From an uncultured bacterium (GTDB taxonomy: Bacteria; Sysuimicrobiota; Sysuimicrobiia; Sysuimicrobiales; Sysuimicrobiaceae): DNA of 64,000 nucleotides. The position numbers and the translations under genes are program-made. The stretch lies in the NCBI GenBank assembly GCA_938028835.1, contig CALIMJ010000027.1:6959-70958 (forward strand), given 5' to 3'. Below are positions 2,642 through 34,761 of the stretch, one piece after another. Every line of letters starts with the position of its first letter. The stretch's first letter is position 1. The notes under the pieces were generated by a model that worked only from the letters and a program-made list of their open reading frames with translations, did no database searches and was not told where the DNA came from.

Positions 2642-2687
2642 ACAGGCAGGGCTTGCCAGGGAGGTGAGAGGGGAACACCTGGGTGGA

Positions 2688-2872
2688 AGCGCCAGGACCC
2701 GCAGCCGGTCAGGTTGCGGGTTGACGAGGCGGGGGATCTCGACGGGGAGCGGCAACTCCCTGCTCGGCGGGTGACCCCAGGCCCACCGGCGGGCCTCCGG
2801 AAACCCATCCGGTCTGCAAAAGGTAGCTGACAAAGCCCGGGGGTGACCCCGGGACAAAAAGCTGCCGGCCGG
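2688..2872 (+). ncRNA. glmS ribozyme/riboswitch (GlcN6P-activated)
   Basis: AGCGCCAGGAC core, P1 stem, GTTGACGAGG, TCGA..TCGGCGGGTG, and P4/P4.1 (GGTAGCT GACAAA GCCCGGGG-GTGA-CCCCGGG ACAAAA AGCTGCC); predicted cleavage A2688/G2689. Confidence 0.92.
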
Positions 2873-3014
2873 CGCCGTTCCTGAGCTGACCGTCGCGCCA
2901 GGCGTCCCACCTGGGCGCGAGGGGTCCCACGAGACAGTCCAGCCATTCGACCTCCCGTCCGGCTGCTTGCGGGCGGGACGGAAACCTTGCGCGCTGCGCG
3001 AAAGGAGGGAGCGT

Positions 3015-25390: not shown

Positions 25391-26947
25391 CTAGCTGCCG
25401 GCCACCAGGGCCTCCCGCGGCCCATGGAGCAGCCCGGCCTCCTTGAGCTGGCTGTAGATCTCCACCACCTTCGAGAAGCCCCGGAAGTCCGCCCGGTACT
25501 CCTTCTCGTGCTTGTAGCCCAGCTCCACGAACTTGTTCAGGGTGATGAAGAAGGCGAACTGCACGATGTTGGCCTCCGCCTCCGGCGCGTCCCGGTTCTT
25601 GTCGACGAACAGGTTGAGGATGTCGATCTTCGGCAGTTCCTCCGGGTCCAGCCCCTCCTGACGGGCCTTGGACTCCAGGTACTCCCGCAGGTCCCGGGTA
25701 GCCTTCCAGTCCTTGACCAGCACCATGGCCACGTCCAGGTCGTACTCCAGATCGCCTGAACCCACGCTGTGGTGCATGGTGGGCCGCTCGTACAGATCCG
25801 ACTCCCCGTCGTCCTCCGCGGGCCGTTCGTCCAGGCGGCAGCCCTCCTTGTCCAGGGGCGAGATGGCCAGAATCGGGGCTCGCAGCTCCAGGCTGAGCTC
25901 CGCCAGCTGCGACGAGATCAGGTCGGTACGGGCCTTGTCGTCCGCGACGGGCTCGTCCAGGGGGATCTTCTGCAGGTAGTCCAGGCAGATGAGGATCCGG
26001 TCGGTGTCGTGCTCCTGCATGACGTTGTAGGCGTGGGCCTTGATCCGGTCCAGGGTGTCCCTGCGTCCGGCCTCCACCAGGTACAGGTAGGGCGCAAACC
26101 GGTACACCTCCTCCTCCGCGGCCCGCAGCTTCGCCAGGCTGAGCGGGGAACGGTCCACGGTCCCCGCCAGGATGTCCGCCGGGCTCACCAGCATCTCCTT
26201 GGCCAGAAGCCGGGCGCTCAACACCTTCACCGTCTGCTCCCAGGAGTAGAAGAGGACGGGGATGCGGTGGTTGCGGGCCACGTAGCTGGCCAGCTGCAAC
26301 GCCAGGTTCGTCTTGCCCCGCCGGGGCGCCCCGGCCAGCCCGTAGTAGAAGCCCGGCCGCAGCCCTGAGAGCAGTCGGTTCAGCCGATCGAAGGGCGAGA
26401 TGGAGTACCCCAGGAGTCCCCCCGCGGAGGGATTCTGGACGTTCTCGATGAGCTCCGCCACCACGTCCCCGACGGGGACCAGCCGCTGCCGCAGGCGCCG
26501 CTTCTGGATCTCGAACAGCTCGCCTACCACCTCGCCCACAAACCGGACCAGGTCCCGGGAGCCCGCTCGTTCCCCCTGACGGAGGAAGTCCTGGATCCGG
26601 CGCTGGACCGCCTCCAGCCTGCGGCGGCTCTCCCGGGCCTTGAGCACGTCCAGGTAGCTGGCCATCTGGGCGGCGGAGGGCGGACGGGTCAACCGCACCG
26701 CCTGCAGGAGGCGCTCCATCTCGGGGGTCAGCAGTCCCCGCTCCTGCACCTCGTGACGCACGCTCAACTCGTCCAGGGAAGCGGCCCGAGCCATAGCCAG
26801 CTCCAGCACCACCTTGCTCAGCCGCTGCGCCACGGGGCTATCCAGCATCTCCGGCGCGAACCCCTCGTTGAGGGCCAGGCTGATCAGGTGTCGGTCGGCT
26901 ATCAGCCCCGCCACGATCGCCACGTCCAGCTCGTGCCGTGCGTCCAT
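25391..26947 (-). CDS. Divergent DnaB-like (SF4) helicase/ATPase
   Basis: Walker A GAPRRGKT, FYSWEQ, LDYLQ, SGDLEYD.D, DKNRD parallel the DnaB H1-H4 motifs. Confidence 0.7.
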   Translation of the reverse strand: MDARHELDVAIVAGLIADRHLISLALNEGFAPEMLDSPVAQRLSKVVLELAMARAASLDELSVRHEVQERGLLTPEMERLLQAVRLTRPPSAAQMASYLDVLKARESRRRLEAVQRRIQDFLRQGERAGSRDLVRFVGEVVGELFEIQKRRLRQRLVPVGDVVAELIENVQNPSAGGLLGYSISPFDRLNRLLSGLRPGFYYGLAGAPRRGKTNLALQLASYVARNHRIPVLFYSWEQTVKVLSARLLAKEMLVSPADILAGTVDRSPLSLAKLRAAEEEVYRFAPYLYLVEAGRRDTLDRIKAHAYNVMQEHDTDRILICLDYLQKIPLDEPVADDKARTDLISSQLAELSLELRAPILAISPLDKEGCRLDERPAEDDGESDLYERPTMHHSVGSGDLEYDLDVAMVLVKDWKATRDLREYLESKARQEGLDPEELPKIDILNLFVDKNRDAPEAEANIVQFAFFITLNKFVELGYKHEKEYRADFRGFSKVVEIYSQLKEAGLLHGPREALVAGS

Positions 26948-27186
26948 GGGTGTCAACACTTCCCTCCTGCCCCGGTGGGGTCCTTCAGGGAGCTGTTGGA
27001 GCAAGTTTCGTTCCAGGAGGCGGGGTTGCCTTGCGGGCCCCGGGGACCTGTGCTACTGTCCCGTCATCCCGGGGCCGTGGCCTAGGGCGACGGGCGGCGG
27101 GGTACAATAATTGCTCTTTGCGTAAACTGAGAGGCAGGACGGCGGTGGCCGGGGGGGCACCGGTGGCGAGGAGCCGGGAGCGGACC

Positions 27187-29607
27187 ATGAAGGCAAGCGG
27201 GACCAAGGCCGAGCAGGCGGAGACGGAGCTGGCCGCCCTCCGGGAGTACAAGGCTTCTTTGGGGATTCCCGCCAGCAACCAGACCCTGGAGTGCGCGTGG
27301 CGGTACCACCAGGCCATCCGGCACGCGCACGCCGGCCGGCTGCAGGAAGCCATCGCGGAGTACAAGAAGCTCATCGAGCTGGCTCCGGAGGAGCCCGTCC
27401 ACTACCTGGACCTAGCGGACCTGTACCAGTCCGGCGGCTTCATGAAGGAAGCTGCGGTGGTCCTTCTGGCGCTGGGCGAGGTGTACGAGAGGCTCGGCCT
27501 TCCCCAGGAGGCAGCCAGCGTCCTGGAGCGCGCGGAAGCCCTGGAGGCGAGGGCGGACGGGTACGCGAAACGGGCCCACGGGCCGGACGTCTCGCCGTCC
27601 GCCGGGGCGGCGCAGCCGGAGGCTACGCCCGAACCGGCTGAGGGGCAGCACGCCCAAGCCTCTCCAGTCGCGGGGGAGGGCCCGGAGCCGGAGGCCCCTC
27701 ATGCACCCCCTGAGGCTGCCGCCGCGCGCGGGCAGCTAGCCCAGGCGGAGCCCGAGGCCACCGAACTGAGCTCCGCCGAAGTTCCGGGCCGCCAGGCGGT
27801 CGAGCCGGCCGCGCCGGCTTCCGCGGGCGCCCTTCCGGTGCCGGACCCGGCGGCCTCAGCTCCCCCAGCACCTCCTTCCGGACCCCGGGCCGCGGCGCGG
27901 CCCGGCGCCCCCACCCTGGTCCGGCGGGAAGCCCTGGGCGGAATTCTGGTTCGCATGGGACTGCTGAACGAGGCACAGCTGCAGCAGGCCCTGGAGATCC
28001 AGGCCCGCACCGGCGAGCGGCTGGGCCGCATCCTGGTACGCATGGGGCTCATCTCAGAGGAGGACCTGGCCAAGGCCATCGGGGTGCAGTGGGGGTACCC
28101 GTACGTCAGCTTGAGCAGCACCCCTGTGGACCCGGAGGTGGTGCGCCTGGTGCCTCAGCACATCGCCTCCCGTCACAAGGTACTGGCCTTCGGCCGCAAC
28201 GGGGACCGGCTCCTGGTGGCCCTGGTGGATCCTTTGAACCTGCTGGCTCTGGACGACGTCCGGCTCGTCACCGGGATGGACGTGGAGGCCCGCATCACCA
28301 CCGAGGACGAGCTGATGCAGGCCGTCAACAAGTACTACCACGTGGGCTCCATCTTCGAGCAGGCCCTGGTCACGGAGGAGGAGGCGGCCGCCGAGGAGGA
28401 GGTGAGCATCGACCGGCTCCGGGAGATGGTGGACGAGGCCCCGGTGGTGAAGCTGGTCAACGTGATCCTGGACCAGGCCATCCGGGAGGGGGCCTCGGAC
28501 ATCCACATCGAGCCCCACCGCCATGGGTTGCACGTCCGCTACCGGATCGACGGGGTCCTTCACGACGTCATGTCGCCCCCCAAGAACCTCAAGGCGGCGC
28601 TGACATCCCGCATCAAGATCGTGGCGAACCTGGACATCGCGGAGCGGCGCCGGCCTCAGGATGGCCGGATCCACCTGAAGGTGGATGGCCGGGACATCGA
28701 CCTCCGCGTCTCCACCCTCCCCACCATGTTCGGGGAGAAGGTGGTGATGCGCATCCTGGACCAGTCCAACGCCCTCATCAGCCTGAACCGGCTCGGCATG
28801 GCCAGTGATGTCCAGGCCCAGTGGGAGGAGCTATCGAGCAAGCCGTACGGCATGATCCTGGTCACCGGACCCACCGGTAGCGGCAAGACCACGACGCTGT
28901 ACGCCACGTTGAGCAAGATCAACACCCTCGACAAGAACATCATCACGGTGGAGGACCCGGTGGAGTACCAGCTCCCCCGGATCAACCAGGTCCAGGTGAA
29001 CCCGAAGGCGGGGCTCACCTTCGCCACGGGCCTGCGGAGTATCCTCCGGCAGGACCCGGACGTGATCATGGTGGGGGAGATCCGCGACCGGGAGACAGCG
29101 GAGATCGCCGTGCAGGCGGCCCTCACGGGCCACCTGGTGCTCAGCACCCTGCACACCAACGACGCCCCCAGCGCCTTCACCCGCCTGATTGACATGGGCA
29201 TCGAGCCCTTCCTCATCACGTCGTCGGTGATCGGGGTCCTCGCCCAGCGATTGAGCCGGACCATCTGCCCGAAGTGCAAGGAGTCGTACCGGCCGCCCCG
29301 CGAGGCGGTGCGGCGCCTGTCGGAGGAGCTGGCGGAGGAGGAGGACCTGGTGCTGTACCGGGGTGCTGGCTGCGACTTCTGCCGCCAGACGGGGTACAAG
29401 GGCCGGACCGGGGTGTACGAGCTGCTGGTGGTGACCGACCGGATCCGGGAACGGGTGGTCCGGCGCGCCTCGGCCAACGAGATCCGGGACGTGGCCCGCT
29501 CGGAAGGCTTCCGGACCATGCGGGACGACGGGATCCGCAAGGTGCTGGAGGGGGTCACCACCATCGAGGAGATCCTGCGGGTGGTGTACGTGACGGAAGG
29601 CGCCTGA
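27187..29607 (+). CDS. pilB: Type IV pilus assembly ATPase with N-terminal TPR and MshEN domains
   Basis: ASDIHIEP, PQDGR, GPTGSGKTTT, LRQDPD, CPKC..C..C; TACAAT at 27103 upstream. Confidence 0.9.
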   Translation: MKASGTKAEQAETELAALREYKASLGIPASNQTLECAWRYHQAIRHAHAGRLQEAIAEYKKLIELAPEEPVHYLDLADLYQSGGFMKEAAVVLLALGEVYERLGLPQEAASVLERAEALEARADGYAKRAHGPDVSPSAGAAQPEATPEPAEGQHAQASPVAGEGPEPEAPHAPPEAAAARGQLAQAEPEATELSSAEVPGRQAVEPAAPASAGALPVPDPAASAPPAPPSGPRAAARPGAPTLVRREALGGILVRMGLLNEAQLQQALEIQARTGERLGRILVRMGLISEEDLAKAIGVQWGYPYVSLSSTPVDPEVVRLVPQHIASRHKVLAFGRNGDRLLVALVDPLNLLALDDVRLVTGMDVEARITTEDELMQAVNKYYHVGSIFEQALVTEEEAAAEEEVSIDRLREMVDEAPVVKLVNVILDQAIREGASDIHIEPHRHGLHVRYRIDGVLHDVMSPPKNLKAALTSRIKIVANLDIAERRRPQDGRIHLKVDGRDIDLRVSTLPTMFGEKVVMRILDQSNALISLNRLGMASDVQAQWEELSSKPYGMILVTGPTGSGKTTTLYATLSKINTLDKNIITVEDPVEYQLPRINQVQVNPKAGLTFATGLRSILRQDPDVIMVGEIRDRETAEIAVQAALTGHLVLSTLHTNDAPSAFTRLIDMGIEPFLITSSVIGVLAQRLSRTICPKCKESYRPPREAVRRLSEELAEEEDLVLYRGAGCDFCRQTGYKGRTGVYELLVVTDRIRERVVRRASANEIRDVARSEGFRTMRDDGIRKVLEGVTTIEEILRVVYVTEGA

Positions 29608-29668: not shown

Positions 29669-30721
29669 GTGCAGGCGGCGGTCCTCGTGCAGTTCAGCGT
29701 CCCTTTGGAAGTGCGGGAGGTCGGGGAGCCCGTGTGCGGCCCCGCGGACGCCGTGGTGCGGGTGGAGGCGTGCGGGGTGTGCCGCAGCGACTGGCACGTG
29801 TGGCGCGGGGACTGGGGCTGGGTGGGGGTGCGGCCGAGGCTGCCGCTGGTGCTCGGGCACGAGTTCGCGGGGGTCGTGGAGGCGGTGGGGGACACGGTGG
29901 AGGGTTTCCGCCCGGGCGACCGGGTGACCGTCCCCTTCCGGATTGCCTGCGGACGGTGCGAGTTCTGCCGCAGCGGCCGGTCCAACCTGTGCCCCCGGCG
30001 CGGGGTGCTGGGGGTGGACCTGGACGGTGCGTTCGCGCGCCGGGTTCGGGTCCCCGAGGCGGAAGTCAACCTCGTAAGGCTGCCGGAAGCGGTGGACTTC
30101 GTGTCCGCGGCGAGCCTGGGGTGTCGGTACACCACCGCGTACCACGCGGTGGCCAACCGCTCCGGGGTCCGTCCGGGCGAGTGGGTGGCGGTGTTCGGAG
30201 CGGGAGGGGTGGGGCTGTCGGCGGTGCAGATCGCTTCGGCCCTGGGAGCGCAGGTGGTGGCCGTGGACGTGCGGGAAGCAAACCTCCGGCGGGCCGCGCG
30301 GGAGGGTGCGGTGGCCTGCGTGGACGCCTCCGCGGAGGATCCCGTCCGACGTGTCCGCGAGCTGGCGGACGGGGAGGGGGCGCACGTGGCGGTGGAGGCC
30401 GTGGGCCTGGCGCAGACCGTCCAGCAGGCGGTGCGCTGCGTCCGCCGCGGCGGCCGGGTGGTGCAGGTGGGCCTGACGGGCCGGGAGGATCAGGGCTCCG
30501 TGCCGATCCCCGTGGACCGGGCGGTGCTCCTGGAGCTCAGCTTGCTGGGCAGCGCGGGCTGTCCGGGCTGGGCCTTCGGAGGCCTGCTGGCCCTGGTGGC
30601 CTCGGGGCGGCTGTCACCCGCGCGCCTGGTGGCGCGCACGATCCGCCTGGAGGAAGTCAACGACGTGCTGGAGGCCATGAGCCGGTTCGAGACGTCGGGC
30701 TTCCACGTGATCACCTGGTAA
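29669..30721 (+). CDS. Zinc-dependent alcohol dehydrogenase
   Basis: CGVCRSD.H, GHE, CGRCEFC..G..N.C, GAGGVG. Confidence 0.9.
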   Translation: MQAAVLVQFSVPLEVREVGEPVCGPADAVVRVEACGVCRSDWHVWRGDWGWVGVRPRLPLVLGHEFAGVVEAVGDTVEGFRPGDRVTVPFRIACGRCEFCRSGRSNLCPRRGVLGVDLDGAFARRVRVPEAEVNLVRLPEAVDFVSAASLGCRYTTAYHAVANRSGVRPGEWVAVFGAGGVGLSAVQIASALGAQVVAVDVREANLRRAAREGAVACVDASAEDPVRRVRELADGEGAHVAVEAVGLAQTVQQAVRCVRRGGRVVQVGLTGREDQGSVPIPVDRAVLLELSLLGSAGCPGWAFGGLLALVASGRLSPARLVARTIRLEEVNDVLEAMSRFETSGFHVITW

Positions 30722-31912: not shown

Positions 31913-32716
31913 GTGGCGGAGGCCCGGGTCGTGGTGGTGGGGGTAGAGGCATCTGGCCTGGTGGTGGCCAGCTGCCTGGCCGGTCCCAGCCGTCACGTCC
32001 TGGCGGTGGAGCCCGACCGCGCCCGACGCGCGGCGCTGCGCCGGGGTTGCCTGCCGTTCTTCGAACCCGGGTTGGAGCCGCTGTTCCGGGAAGCCCTGGG
32101 CTGCGGGTGGCTGGAGCTGGCGGAGGATCCGCCTTCAGACGCAGCCCTGTGGTGCGTGGCCACGGACCCACGGCGGCAGCCGTGGGCGGACAACCTCGTG
32201 AGTCGACCGGCGCCGGACAGCGTCCTGGCCCTTCAGACCCCCGTACCTGTGGGGACTGCCCAGTGGCTTCAGCACCGGCTGCGGGAGCGTCGGGGCGAAG
32301 GCTTTCCCGCAGGCGTGGTCTCCAACCCCCTGCTGCTCCGCCGGGGCCAGGCGGTGCGGGACTTCCTGCGGCCCCGGTGGGTGCTGCTGGGCGGAGACCA
32401 TCGCTGCGCCGTGGACGCGGTGGCGGAGTTGTACCGCGGAACCGGGGCGCTGCTGGTGCGGACCGACCACCGCACCGCGGAGGCCGCGGCGCAGCTGGCG
32501 GACGCGCTGCCCGGCGTCTTCGCTTCCCTGCTGGACGCCGCCCGGGAACGCGCGGAGGCCTGGGGAGCGGACTTCGAGCTGTTGAGGCGGCTGGTGCTCT
32601 CGGAGGCAGTGGACGGAGCGTTCCGGCGGTACGTGCACGGCCTCGCGCACCGGCCGGCTCACCCGCGTGACCGCGCGCTGATCGGTGACGGAGCCGTCCC
32701 GTCGGGTGCGCCCTGA
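31913..32716 (+). CDS. Degenerate UDP-glucose/GDP-mannose dehydrogenase-like protein
   Basis: PFFEPGL, TPVPVGT, VSNP..LR.G.AV.DF..P match the family N-domain; no GxGxxG and no C-terminal domain. Confidence 0.6.
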   Translation: MAEARVVVVGVEASGLVVASCLAGPSRHVLAVEPDRARRAALRRGCLPFFEPGLEPLFREALGCGWLELAEDPPSDAALWCVATDPRRQPWADNLVSRPAPDSVLALQTPVPVGTAQWLQHRLRERRGEGFPAGVVSNPLLLRRGQAVRDFLRPRWVLLGGDHRCAVDAVAELYRGTGALLVRTDHRTAEAAAQLADALPGVFASLLDAARERAEAWGADFELLRRLVLSEAVDGAFRRYVHGLAHRPAHPRDRALIGDGAVPSGAP

Positions 32717-32842
32717 CCCCGGAGGGCCGTCAGGGATGTGGGCTTGGGGGGTACCCTCGGACGCACACCGGGTGGAAGCGCGCCGCGCGGACCTCGGGGG
32801 GTAGGGTCCGCACGCGCGCGCTTCCCGCCCGGTGCCCTCTGC

Positions 32843-32878
32843 AGAACAGAAGGCCCGTGCGCACCGCGCGAACGGGCC
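32843..32878 (-). terminator. Intrinsic terminator-like expression platform of the riboswitch
   Basis: Minus strand GGCCCGT-TCGCGCGGTGCGC-ACGGGCC followed by TTCTGTT. Confidence 0.55.
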
Positions 32879-32890
32879 CAAAAACGAAAC

Positions 32891-32982
32891 CACCGTTTTC
32901 GGCAACCCGGCCGACCTGTTCCTCACAGGCCCCGTTGGCTTTGCGTCCCCGCGTTACCGCGGGTTTGCCCTTTCGAACGGTG
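32891..32982 (-). ncRNA. c-di-GMP-I (GEMM) riboswitch
   Basis: Minus strand CACCGTT-CGAAA-GGGCAAACCCGCG-GTAA-CGCGGGGACGCAAAGCC...GGGTTGCCGAA-AACGGTG; P1, P2 with GNRA loop, P3 present. Confidence 0.9.
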
Positions 32983-33004
32983 CGCGGTTCAGTTTTGTAC
33001 GCGC

Positions 33005-33033
33005 AAGATAGCGCCGGCCCACCCGGTTGTCAA
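33005..33033 (-). promoter_or_regulatory. Near-consensus sigma70 promoter upstream of the riboswitch
   Basis: TTGACA-17 bp-TATCTT on the minus strand. Confidence 0.75.
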
Positions 33034-33120: not shown

Positions 33121-34761
33121 TTGGCGCGTTGGGCGGAGTTCGCGGCCACCCTGGACGCAGTGTCCCGTACGCCGTCGAAACGGGAGAAGGTCACCCTGCT
33201 GGCGGCGTACCTGCGCCGGCTCCCGGAGGACGCGCTGCGGGTCGCGTGTACGTACCTGACCGGTCGCGTGCTGCCGCCCGGGGATCCCGACAAACTGCAG
33301 ATCGGCTGGTCCACCCTCGTGGAGGTGCTGCAGGAGCTGTCCGGGGCTACGGATCGGGAGGTCTCGGAGCTGTACCTGCGCTGGGGCGACCTAGGAGACG
33401 CAGCCGCGGAGCTGGTGGCCCGGCGGCGCACCGTCCCCCTGTTCCGCGAGCCCCTGACCCTGGAGGCTACCCACGCGCAGCTGCGGCGCGCAGCGGCCGT
33501 GCGCGGGAAGGGAGCTGCGGAGTTCCGGGCGGCGGTCCTGCGGGCCCTCCTGGAGCAGGCGCAGCCCATGGAGGCGAAGTACCTGGTCCGGGTGCTCACC
33601 GGGGACCTGCGGATCGGTCTGAAGGAAGGGTTGCTGCAGGAGGCGGTGGCGGAGGCGTTCAGCGCTCGGCCGGCAGCGGTGCGCCGCGCGGACCTGCTGT
33701 GTTCGGACCTCGCAGAGGTGGCGTGTCAGGCGCGCCGGGGCGAGCTGGCCGCTAGCTCCCTGCGCTACTTCCGCCCCTTCCGCTTCATGCTGGCCGGCAC
33801 CCTCGCCGACCCCGCGGAGCCTTTCCGGGGGGGCTCACAGGAGGTGCTGGCGGAGGACAAGTACGACGGGGTGCGCGTGCAGGTGCATCGGCTGGGCGAC
33901 CGGGTCACGCTGTACTCGCGCACCCTGGACGACGTGACGGACAGCTTCCCGGAGCTCCGACAGCCTCTGCTGCAGCTCGGCCCCGCGTACATCGCGGACG
34001 GCGAGCTGGTGGCCTGGGCCGGACAGCAGCCGGCCCCGTTCCAACGGTTGCAGCAGCGCCTGCGCCGGCTCGATCCCCTCGAGGTGGCGGAGCAGGTCCC
34101 CGTGGTCCTGTTCCTGTTCGACCTGTTGAGGGTGGAAGGGCAGGATCTGGTGGACCTCCCCCTGGTCGAGCGCCGGCAGCGCCTCGAGTCCCTGGGCTTC
34201 TCCGGACCGGTCCGCCTGGCGAATGCCCGGCCCGTGCGGGACGTGGCCTCCCTGCGGGAGGCCTTCCAGGCTGCCCGGGAACGTGGCAACGAGGGCCTGG
34301 TGGTGAAACGCCTGGACGCGCCGTACCGGCCGGGGCGGCGGGGCGGGCTGTGGTTGAAGTGGAAGGAGCCGCTGGCGACCCTGGACGTGGTGGTGGTAGG
34401 TGCGGAGTACGGCCACGGCAAACGGGCGGGGTGGCTGAGCGACTACACCTTCGCCGTCCGGGACGGCGACCGCCTGCGCGTGGTGGGCAAGGCCTACTCC
34501 GGCCTGCAGGACGCGGAGATCGCGCAGCTCACGGAGTTCTTCCTCCGCCACACGGTGAGGGACTTCGGGCACTTCAAGGCGGTGGAGCCGAAGGTGGTGC
34601 TGGAGGTGGCGTTCGACGCGGTGACGCGCAGCGACCGGCACGACTCCGGCTACGCGCTGCGGTTTCCCCGTATCGTCCGGGTGCGCGCCGACAAGACGCC
34701 GCAGGAGGCCAGCACCCTGGAAGAGGTGGAGGCCCTGTACCGCCAGCAGCGGCAGGGTTAG
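33121..34761 (+). CDS. ATP-dependent DNA ligase (LigB/archaeal-like)
   Basis: EDKYDG.R, DGE, FDLL, EGLVVK, WLKWK, LRFPR..R.DK; TTG start after AGGAGG. Confidence 0.92.
   Translation: MARWAEFAATLDAVSRTPSKREKVTLLAAYLRRLPEDALRVACTYLTGRVLPPGDPDKLQIGWSTLVEVLQELSGATDREVSELYLRWGDLGDAAAELVARRRTVPLFREPLTLEATHAQLRRAAAVRGKGAAEFRAAVLRALLEQAQPMEAKYLVRVLTGDLRIGLKEGLLQEAVAEAFSARPAAVRRADLLCSDLAEVACQARRGELAASSLRYFRPFRFMLAGTLADPAEPFRGGSQEVLAEDKYDGVRVQVHRLGDRVTLYSRTLDDVTDSFPELRQPLLQLGPAYIADGELVAWAGQQPAPFQRLQQRLRRLDPLEVAEQVPVVLFLFDLLRVEGQDLVDLPLVERRQRLESLGFSGPVRLANARPVRDVASLREAFQAARERGNEGLVVKRLDAPYRPGRRGGLWLKWKEPLATLDVVVVGAEYGHGKRAGWLSDYTFAVRDGDRLRVVGKAYSGLQDAEIAQLTEFFLRHTVRDFGHFKAVEPKVVLEVAFDAVTRSDRHDSGYALRFPRIVRVRADKTPQEASTLEEVEALYRQQRQG

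Follow-up and report, generated by a model that had tools for sequence, protein, structure and literature searches.

A c-di-GMP-I riboswitch of an uncultured Sysuimicrobiota bacterium, read from the minus strand of the window (the whole stretch of 64,000 nt that was analysed), combines its own promoter with a conserved switching platform, and the only conserved feature found beyond its terminator is a hairpin whose stem arms are identical in all the related sequences. We hold, with slightly better than even confidence, that the regulated product is a noncoding RNA gated by the riboswitch and that the hairpin is its functional module, which would act in trans with or without an additional antisense action; these two modes do not exclude each other. 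A bolder version, in which this would be the first trans-acting RNA gated by a c-di-GMP riboswitch, its C6-loop hairpin binding G-rich mRNA sites or sequestering a protein, is advanced only tentatively and receives distinctly less credence.

According to the proposed mechanism, the strong promoter would start a minus-strand RNA near position 32998. At low c-di-GMP, the 5' flank of the aptamer would pair with the 5' arm of the terminator while the 3' strand of P1 would be held in a hairpin of its own, and the polymerase would read on to give an RNA of about 240-380 nt. The sole conserved feature of the additional, read-through part of this RNA would be the very stable hairpin with its invariant stem and C6 loop. 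When c-di-GMP is bound, P1 would close, the terminator T1 would form and the RNA would stop short of the hairpin. The hairpin RNA would thus be the regulatory product: most likely, its C-rich loop would pair with G-rich RNA sites, or else a protein would recognise the hairpin. It may also be antisense to the convergent dehydrogenase-like gene, since the RNA would run towards the 3' end of this gene. The direction and ends of the transcript, as well as the function of the hairpin, are here predicted from the DNA sequence. The features concerned are listed in Table 1.

Table 1. Features of the riboswitch locus and of its neighbourhood (positions in the window)
Feature	Position	Strand	Evidence or description
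PilB ATPase gene, TPR and MshEN domains	26938-29607	+	Pfam, GC3
Zinc ADH gene	29669-30721	+	Pfam, GC3
Amidohydrolase gene	to 31869	+	Pfam, GC3
UDPG_MGDP_dh_N protein gene (convergent, 266 aa)	31916..32716	+	Pfam PF03721, E 1.7e-13; GC3
Small hairpin	32711..32735	.	At the stop codon of the convergent gene; seen in sequence and fold
Putative output hairpin	32766..32834	-	7-bp base stem, 20-bp upper stem with one bulged G, 11-nt loop
Putative terminator T1	32843..32879	-	Stem of 7+4 pairs (32879-32852), then U-rich tail UUCUGUUCU
Anti-P1 hairpin	32878..32902	-	CCGAAAACGG / UCGUUUUUGG; holds the 3' strand of P1 when no ligand is bound
c-di-GMP-I (GEMM-I) aptamer	32897..32978	-	RF01051, 67.9 bits (cut-off 35)
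Antiterminator 5' strand	32967..32985	-	GCGCACCGUUCGAAAGGGC; pairs with 32879-32859
Sigma-70-type promoter	33005..33033	-	TTGACA 33033-33028, 17-nt spacer, TATCTT 33010-33005
ATP-dependent DNA ligase gene (divergent)	33121..34761	+	Pfam DNA_ligase_A_N, _M, _C; upstream boundary

The promoter motif matches the consensus at 10 of 12 positions. It had already been read by the earlier note as TTGACA-17-TATCTT on the minus strand, and it proves to be the sole promoter-like site on either strand in the 2.5 kb between 31500 and 34000 (shuffled sequence gave a mean of 0.0 sites). The TTGACA hexamer is kept in 14/14 related sequences, whose promoter spacers are unalignable.

The intact GEMM aptamer claimed by the same note is confirmed by Infernal with a score well above the cut-off (Table 1), the match to RF01051 spanning model positions 1-87. 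Its two-helix fold includes P2, which is capped by a GNRA tetraloop (GUAA), P3 and a closing P1 that exists in an extended form (32981-32974 paired with 32901-32892). These three helices are 96-100% paired in the 14 sequences, with one compensatory pair in P3. The aptamer also scores 59.0 bits with RF03167 (c-di-GMP-I-GGC, cut-off 59), which is the label reported at Rfam gathering thresholds, and 65.8 bits with RF03168 (c-di-GMP-I-UAU, cut-off 65.9), which is the top scorer under permissive settings. The names of these variants presumably encode the residues at the three binding-site positions. At the three columns that separate the GGC and UAU consensus sequences, the aptamer reads G, A and C instead of G, G, C or U, A, U, and both variant identities were rejected. 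By our own mapping of these columns, the three residues would be the equivalents of G20, A47 and C92, the c-di-GMP-contacting residues of Vc2 according to the part of the source consulted (PMC4744006). Because of this match, the aptamer is probably a canonical c-di-GMP-I aptamer that binds c-di-GMP. The Rfam variant models would therefore name a canonical aptamer "GGC" at the gathering threshold, and automatic annotation could be misled.

The expression platform has mutually exclusive helices, and T1, an antiterminator and an anti-P1 hairpin are each conserved. The stem of T1 is 94% paired in the 14 sequences and two of its pairs are compensatory, one changing from CG to UA in four sequences and the other from UA to CG in two. 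This upholds the terminator-like hairpin described earlier (32879-32852), at which termination is predicted. The U-tract is imperfect, and a simple terminator scan did not call T1 because of its 13-nt loop or its bulge. The 5' strand of the antiterminator covers the ligand-binding junction as well as the 5' strand of P1, and its partner consists of the 5' arm and the loop of the T1 hairpin. This helix has 17 pairs that are 95.3% paired over the 14 sequences, and four of them are kept by G-U pairing at the very positions at which the terminator arm differs. The pairing of GCGCACCG with CGGUGCGC, which the earlier note had described as an alternative overlapping the P1 5' strand, is part of this antiterminator. 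As for the anti-P1 hairpin, its 10 pairs are 100% paired in the 14 sequences. The minimum-free-energy fold of the RNA from the window consists of the antiterminator plus the anti-P1 hairpin, instead of the aptamer plus the terminator. The antiterminator fold also has a lower energy than the bound-like one in all 13 evaluable sequences (the fourteenth was not evaluable), a comparison that ignores ligand and tertiary energy and in which the free-like structure has more helices. Structure and covariation thus support the layout of a transcriptional c-di-GMP OFF switch, as had been suggested from the alternative pairing.

In an alignment of the locus from six genomes of the same genus, the highest conservation, above that of the aptamer, is found in the hairpin block behind the terminator. 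This block, the core of the putative output hairpin, is an invariant stretch of 51 nt (32825-32775). The hairpin is GC-rich, has a folding energy of -63.7 kcal/mol and occurs as a single copy in the genome. Both stem arms are identical in 14/14 sequences, and its loop, CUACCCCCCGA at 32804-32794, contains the C6 run. Variation is confined to the 5' side of the loop in two sequences, one of which has GACUCCCCCCGA and the other an extra U. Behind the hairpin, the sequence is unalignable, and for the convergent protein the identity is down to 48-51% in the genomes that are most distant. This hairpin had been overlooked in the first examination of the sequence.

The riboswitch does not lie in the 5' leader of a protein-coding gene, no conserved ORF being found downstream. 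The earlier claim that the next 5.7 kb past it hold only plus-strand genes (ugd-like, nagA, adh and pilB) agrees with both Pfam and GC3. The nearest of them encodes a truncated UDP-glucose/GDP-mannose-dehydrogenase-like protein, reduced to the N-terminal NAD domain alone; its relatives in other genomes of the phylum mostly have frames of 430-500 aa and are at most 38% identical to it. On the other side of the riboswitch, the ligase gene, which has orthologues across the family, begins with a TTG start behind AGGAGG, as read from the sequence. A minus-strand ORF of 263 codons that starts inside the aptamer was rejected as an antisense shadow of the dehydrogenase-like gene, and it has no Pfam match. 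Furthermore, the region of the terminator contains indels (2 and 4 nt) that exclude longer frames on either strand.

The riboswitch unit was found in seven of the eight genomes of one Sysuimicrobiota genus. The search for an exact 21-mer and a covariance model of the hairpin built from the 14 sequences (90-103 bits) gave strong matches in just these seven genomes. In the other 86 genomes of the phylum, the covariance model gave matches at chance level only (E of at least 0.018 per genome), and a pattern search allowing up to three mismatches gave, outside the genus, matches only at the level of a reversed-pattern control. These tallies of the phylum include two unpublished genomes (G023 and G076), which matter for the counts alone. 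An exact search of 185,579 species genomes led to six records, all of them falling on the contigs and coordinates of this genus (g1, genomes G001-G006) already identified by the pattern and covariance searches, and none outside it.

The order dehydrogenase-like gene, riboswitch unit on the opposite strand and ligase gene is the same in 6/6 loci of the genus and in the four metagenome loci tested, and the layout without a downstream gene is seen in 6/6 genus loci and 7/7 metagenome loci (three of these seven are near-copies of genome loci). The synteny check proposed earlier thus speaks against a lost downstream gene. The dehydrogenase-like gene was found only in the seven genomes with the hairpin. 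Genus g2, which belongs to the same family, has neither the riboswitch nor the dehydrogenase-like gene, and its nagA is immediately adjacent to the ligase gene. In the eighth species of the genus (G007), a single deletion has removed the dehydrogenase-like gene together with the hairpin, the terminator and the 3' half of the aptamer; what is left is the promoter with the 5' half of the aptamer, and nagA abuts this remnant. From this shared presence and absence, including G007 and g2, the gene and the unit entered the genus together and were lost together in one lineage.

This joint history is also what would be expected if the riboswitch acted purely as a cis-antisense element, i.e., if read-through into the 3' end of the convergent gene affected this gene by transcriptional interference or duplex-dependent decay, the hairpin being a stabiliser, a processing site or a roadblock and not a trans-acting module. 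We consider this pure form rather unlikely, although it is the alternative that survives best. Antisense riboswitches are known, for example a SAM riboswitch at ubiG-mccB-mccA of Clostridium acetobutylicum and a cobalamin riboswitch opposite pocR of Listeria (PMC9943018). In the part of their survey consulted, Serrano-Gutierrez and Merino (2023) take as antisense a riboswitch whose transcription proceeds towards the 3' end of a gene that converges on it and is at most 500 nt away, and count 152 antisense against 2,554 sense c-di-GMP riboswitches (P 4.6e-62), the strongest antisense-placement bias among the riboswitch families (PMC9943018). The present riboswitch resembles them by its own promoter, the lack of a gene of its own and the 3' end of a convergent gene, the aptamer end (32897) being 181 nt from the end of the convergent stop codon (32716), within those 500 nt. 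It differs from the cases described in the same part of that survey by the invariant structured module placed between the terminator and the convergent gene, and by its phylum (PMC9943018).

RNA data bear on the same point. Parts of the stretch are contained in five RNA libraries, four of which were examined, and contigs from three studies cover the riboswitch and the hairpin; these are assembled contigs only, which do not show strand, ends or level. One contig of 380 nt, which comes from a relative and has a depth of 6, has an end at 32986, i.e., 12 nt away from the predicted start. After T1 and the hairpin, it extends by a further 159 nt and enters the relative's convergent gene by about 37 nt, as a cis-antisense RNA would, but it could also be a merge of two converging transcripts. 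Another contig of 1,165 nt extends from the dehydrogenase-like gene across the promoter and could result from plus-strand read-through or from DNA carry-over. Taken together, these contigs give a weak hint that a read-through RNA exists. The matches of RNA run X3 and parts of those of X1 and X2 were rejected, as they are limited to 32929-32976, the conserved 5' half of the aptamer, and probably come from other riboswitch loci. The uncovered stretches, 32670-32743 and above 33150, carry no meaning for expression. Enrichment cultures that contain this genus, and RNA data for them, have been described (PMC11604079). As for the small hairpin over the stop codon of the convergent gene, either of the two transcripts could end there; its conservation is poor, and it is unalignable beyond the closest relatives.

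Pure cis-antisense action does not require that a 51-nt block stay identical amid diverging surroundings while the adjacent terminator stem covaries freely, and the co-occurrence with the convergent gene may reflect merely one insertion and one deletion. The antisense read-through suggested earlier keeps some credit as far as the convergent gene is concerned, given the 181 nt and the joint gain and loss; its extension as far as pilB, 3.3 kb away, finds no support. It is this same contrast between the invariance of the hairpin and the free covariation of the terminator beside it, together with the C6 run at the apex, that speaks for an action in trans, and the sRNA option of the earlier note survives with the invariant hairpin as the only conserved feature downstream.

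The invariance can be read in other ways. An invariant stem is at least as compatible with a protein partner, or with a constraint acting at the DNA level, as it is with base-pairing. The upper stem shows no covariation across the 14 sequences, so that its structure is supported only by complementarity and by the base stem, in which one pair is compensatory (G-C to A-U in four sequences); this invariance could reflect a constraint on the DNA. It is thus conceivable, although improbable in our view, that the hairpin is not the output of the riboswitch at all: it could be a site in the DNA (a protein-binding palindrome) or an element of the plus strand, for instance forming the 3' terminus of the mRNA of the dehydrogenase-like gene or acting as a bidirectional stop, while the riboswitch would make a short RNA only, e.g., as a ligand sink or a relic. 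In line with this, the hairpin co-occurs as tightly with the plus-strand gene as with the riboswitch, and a transcription factor binds the DNA encoding the Bc1 dual terminator in Bacillus thuringiensis (PMC11218506, consulted in part). Against a plus-strand element, the upper stem has one pair that is G-C in some sequences and G-U in others, as well as one U-G pair that never changes, and these two positions become A-C mismatches on the plus strand, which mildly favours the minus strand as the strand of the hairpin RNA; moreover, inspection of the sequence found no U-tail behind the hairpin on either strand. The link between riboswitch and hairpin also appears in the metagenomes, where the loci were fetched with an anchor of 24 nt from the 3' part of the aptamer only, so that the hairpin was not selected for: 7/7 carry it, at a fixed distance from T1. 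Finally, the clear constraint on the promoter, on the aptamer and on the two alternative helices is not what a relic would show.

Weighing against an action in trans, the target searches came up with nothing convincing. Exact k-mers of the loop complement gave no site standing out, and the 575 runs of 10, 158 of 11 and 30 of 12 obtained in an ungapped scan with G-U pairs permitted amount to noise. Two matches located 75 nt apart on contig C8 were rejected, as they correspond to a stretch resembling a ribosome-binding site and to glycine/valine codons of an ABC ATPase.

The lost gene envisaged by the earlier note, i.e., a decaying remnant in which nothing functional is left, is very improbable. 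It is true that G007, by retaining only the promoter and half of the aptamer, shows that the unit can be lost. Nevertheless, the unit is near-identical in the 13 other sequences, which come from lineages with 50-90% identity between neighbouring proteins, the terminator is upheld by compensatory changes, and the conservation of the promoter, the aptamer and the switching helices argues against a relic. The gene-less layout is that of every genus and metagenome locus inspected, and sister genera, which have no riboswitch here, show nagA directly beside the ligase gene without any trace of a lost gene.

That the switch controls a small unannotated protein, the other option raised earlier, is scarcely credible. 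Such control has lately been demonstrated for c-di-GMP riboswitches of Clostridioides difficile, and a family of small proteins behind c-di-GMP riboswitches is on record (PMC13724677, consulted in part). In the window (G+C 71%), a frame of 27 codons starts at a GTG within the hairpin, and its upstream extension gives a 44-codon ORF (32730-32864). This frame, the sole ORF through the conserved block, was rejected as a gene because its length varies from 16 to more than 100 codons across the 14 relatives, loop indels shift it in two of them, the relatives have in common no more than the 12-13 residues that the invariant block encodes, the start codon is buried in a 20-bp GC-rich stem, and the long shadow ORF is interrupted by the upstream indels of 2 and 4 nt.

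Some known systems are comparable to the gated hairpin RNA that we favour. One of them is EutX/Rli55 of Enterococcus and Listeria, which senses adenosylcobalamin and whose ANTAR-type hairpin pair sequesters a known protein. Both systems have, in this order, a promoter, a riboswitch, a ligand-dependent terminator (predicted here) and a hairpin module present only on read-through, with no coding sequence. Unlike EutX/Rli55, the unit described here would respond to c-di-GMP, and its candidate module consists of a single hairpin, long and GC-rich, with the C6 run in its loop.

C-rich loops are also the seeds of sRNAs other than 6C. The 6C RNA of Actinobacteria binds mRNAs through such loops (PMC6486639, consulted in part), and the present stable hairpin likewise exposes a run of six C in its loop, the seed feature of 6C. 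Unlike 6C, it is one hairpin and not two, it belongs to a different phylum and its RNA would be under riboswitch control, which 6C is not. Assignment to the 6C family (RF01066) was rejected: the match at 32756-32816, a single hairpin, reaches 20.3 bits for a cut-off of 47 (E 5.8), and the best score of a genome-wide search for 6C, 19.3 bits, is below the cut-off.

Two c-di-GMP-I riboswitches share other aspects of the arrangement, as far as the consulted parts of the reports describe them. In Bc1 of Bacillus thuringiensis, whose expression platform is long, the aptamer is also followed by two successive strong hairpins, but Bc1 precedes genes and both hairpins are typical terminators with U-tracts (PMC11218506), whereas the second hairpin here has no U-tract, is invariant in sequence and is not followed by a gene. 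Vc2 of Vibrio cholerae is likewise tied to the amount of a small RNA; however, this sRNA lies upstream, the riboswitch acts on its stability and tfoY lies downstream (bioRxiv 10.1101/617340), whereas the candidate RNA described here lies downstream of the terminator, with no gene.

If a noncoding RNA is indeed the output, c-di-GMP would join the very short list of ligands, i.e., cobalamin and SAM, whose riboswitches gate regulatory RNAs. Moreover, c-di-GMP riboswitches are known as leaders of protein genes, and the limited collection of literature searched yielded no report of one with a conserved effector hairpin or gating a downstream sRNA. In the consulted part of the survey cited above, the antisense-placed ones are counted rather than dissected, none with a defined output (PMC9943018). 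In the present case, the output would be identifiable as a discrete invariant hairpin predicted on read-through only, and the unit, about 240 nt long, could serve as a testable model for many orphan or antisense c-di-GMP riboswitches. If the action in trans is also true, it would wire a second messenger into post-transcriptional control without a protein receptor, and the unit would be a genus-specific invention in an uncultured thermophilic phylum.

Within this phylum, c-di-GMP-I aptamers are common, 60 of 61 related genomes having at least one. With a crude GC3 filter on fetched loci, a plausible coding start was found within 600 nt behind 33 of 52 aptamer matches, a tally that includes overlapping loci, some counted up to three times, and in which at least one "miss" has a gene when inspected by eye. 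The genes found behind these aptamers include those of small secreted proteins, PilT-like ATPases and pilin-like genes. The genome of the window itself (an assembly of 2.16 Mb in 52 contigs, 94.7% complete) has another copy of the aptamer, on contig C43, located before prepilin-like genes. As the other aptamers, including this second copy, mostly precede genes, the gene-less unit is an exception in the phylum. A run of at least six C occurs in 9 of 45 distinct regions downstream of c-di-GMP riboswitches of the phylum, compared with 7.7% of random windows of 260 nt; a general link between C runs and these riboswitches was rejected, since most of the runs sit in terminators or in coding sequence. 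A similar arrangement of the C run is seen only for the first of three tandem riboswitches in genome G009.

Under Rfam clan competition, the aptamer of the riboswitch unit, which carries G, A and C at the three predicted ligand-contact positions, is called the GGC variant (RF03167), exactly at the threshold of that family. Its score against the parent family (RF01051, c-di-GMP-I) is 33 bits over the parent's own threshold. The aptamer would be mislabelled under automatic annotation.

A natural deletion allele of the riboswitch locus is found in the eighth species of the genus (G007, locus L060, 1440-1600). What remains in this allele is the promoter plus the aptamer 5' half; the aptamer 3' half, the terminator, the hairpin and the convergent dehydrogenase-like gene are absent. 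The latter is genus-restricted, yet its reading frame is still open at 51-91% identity. The glycine-rich motif of its product looks degenerate by eye.

Features of the window discussed here
Feature	Coordinates	Strand	Details
glmS ribozyme/riboswitch match	2677-2876	+	53.6 bits; cut-off 37
DnaB_C-domain helicase-like gene	25391-27004	-	longest ORF
PilB-type ATPase gene	26938-29607	+	TPR repeats at N-terminus, MshEN domain
UDP-glucose-dehydrogenase-like gene	31916-32716	+	truncated, 266 aa, N-terminal NAD domain alone
c-di-GMP-I aptamer	32897-32978	-	
tRNA gene	60920-60993	-	66.8 bits

MshEN is a domain that binds c-di-GMP; thus, the PilB-type ATPase and the riboswitch would make two putative c-di-GMP-sensing devices 3.3 kb apart. 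The 5' ends of the longest ORFs of pilB and of the helicase-like gene overlap by 67 nt, and the actual starts may differ.

The sole other c-di-GMP-I aptamer of the same genome (contig C43, 23671-23749, + strand; 67.6 bits) is associated with a strong terminator and lies upstream of a series of prepilin-like genes (GFTLLE-type N-termini). In a sister genus (G009), three c-di-GMP-I aptamers are arranged in tandem upstream of a secreted protein gene (locus L062, 1450-2010). The first of them resembles the riboswitch unit of the window in the design of its P1 and terminator. Behind it comes a hairpin-like stretch containing seven consecutive C, and these could pair with seven consecutive G located immediately 5' of the second aptamer. 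Other families of the phylum harbour paired c-di-GMP-I aptamers with a spacing of 110-240 nt (loci L003, L004, L006, L009 and L019), downstream of which are encoded secreted proteins that resemble one another at the N-terminus and are about 127-140 aa long. Further aptamers are found upstream of genes encoding PilT-like ATPases.
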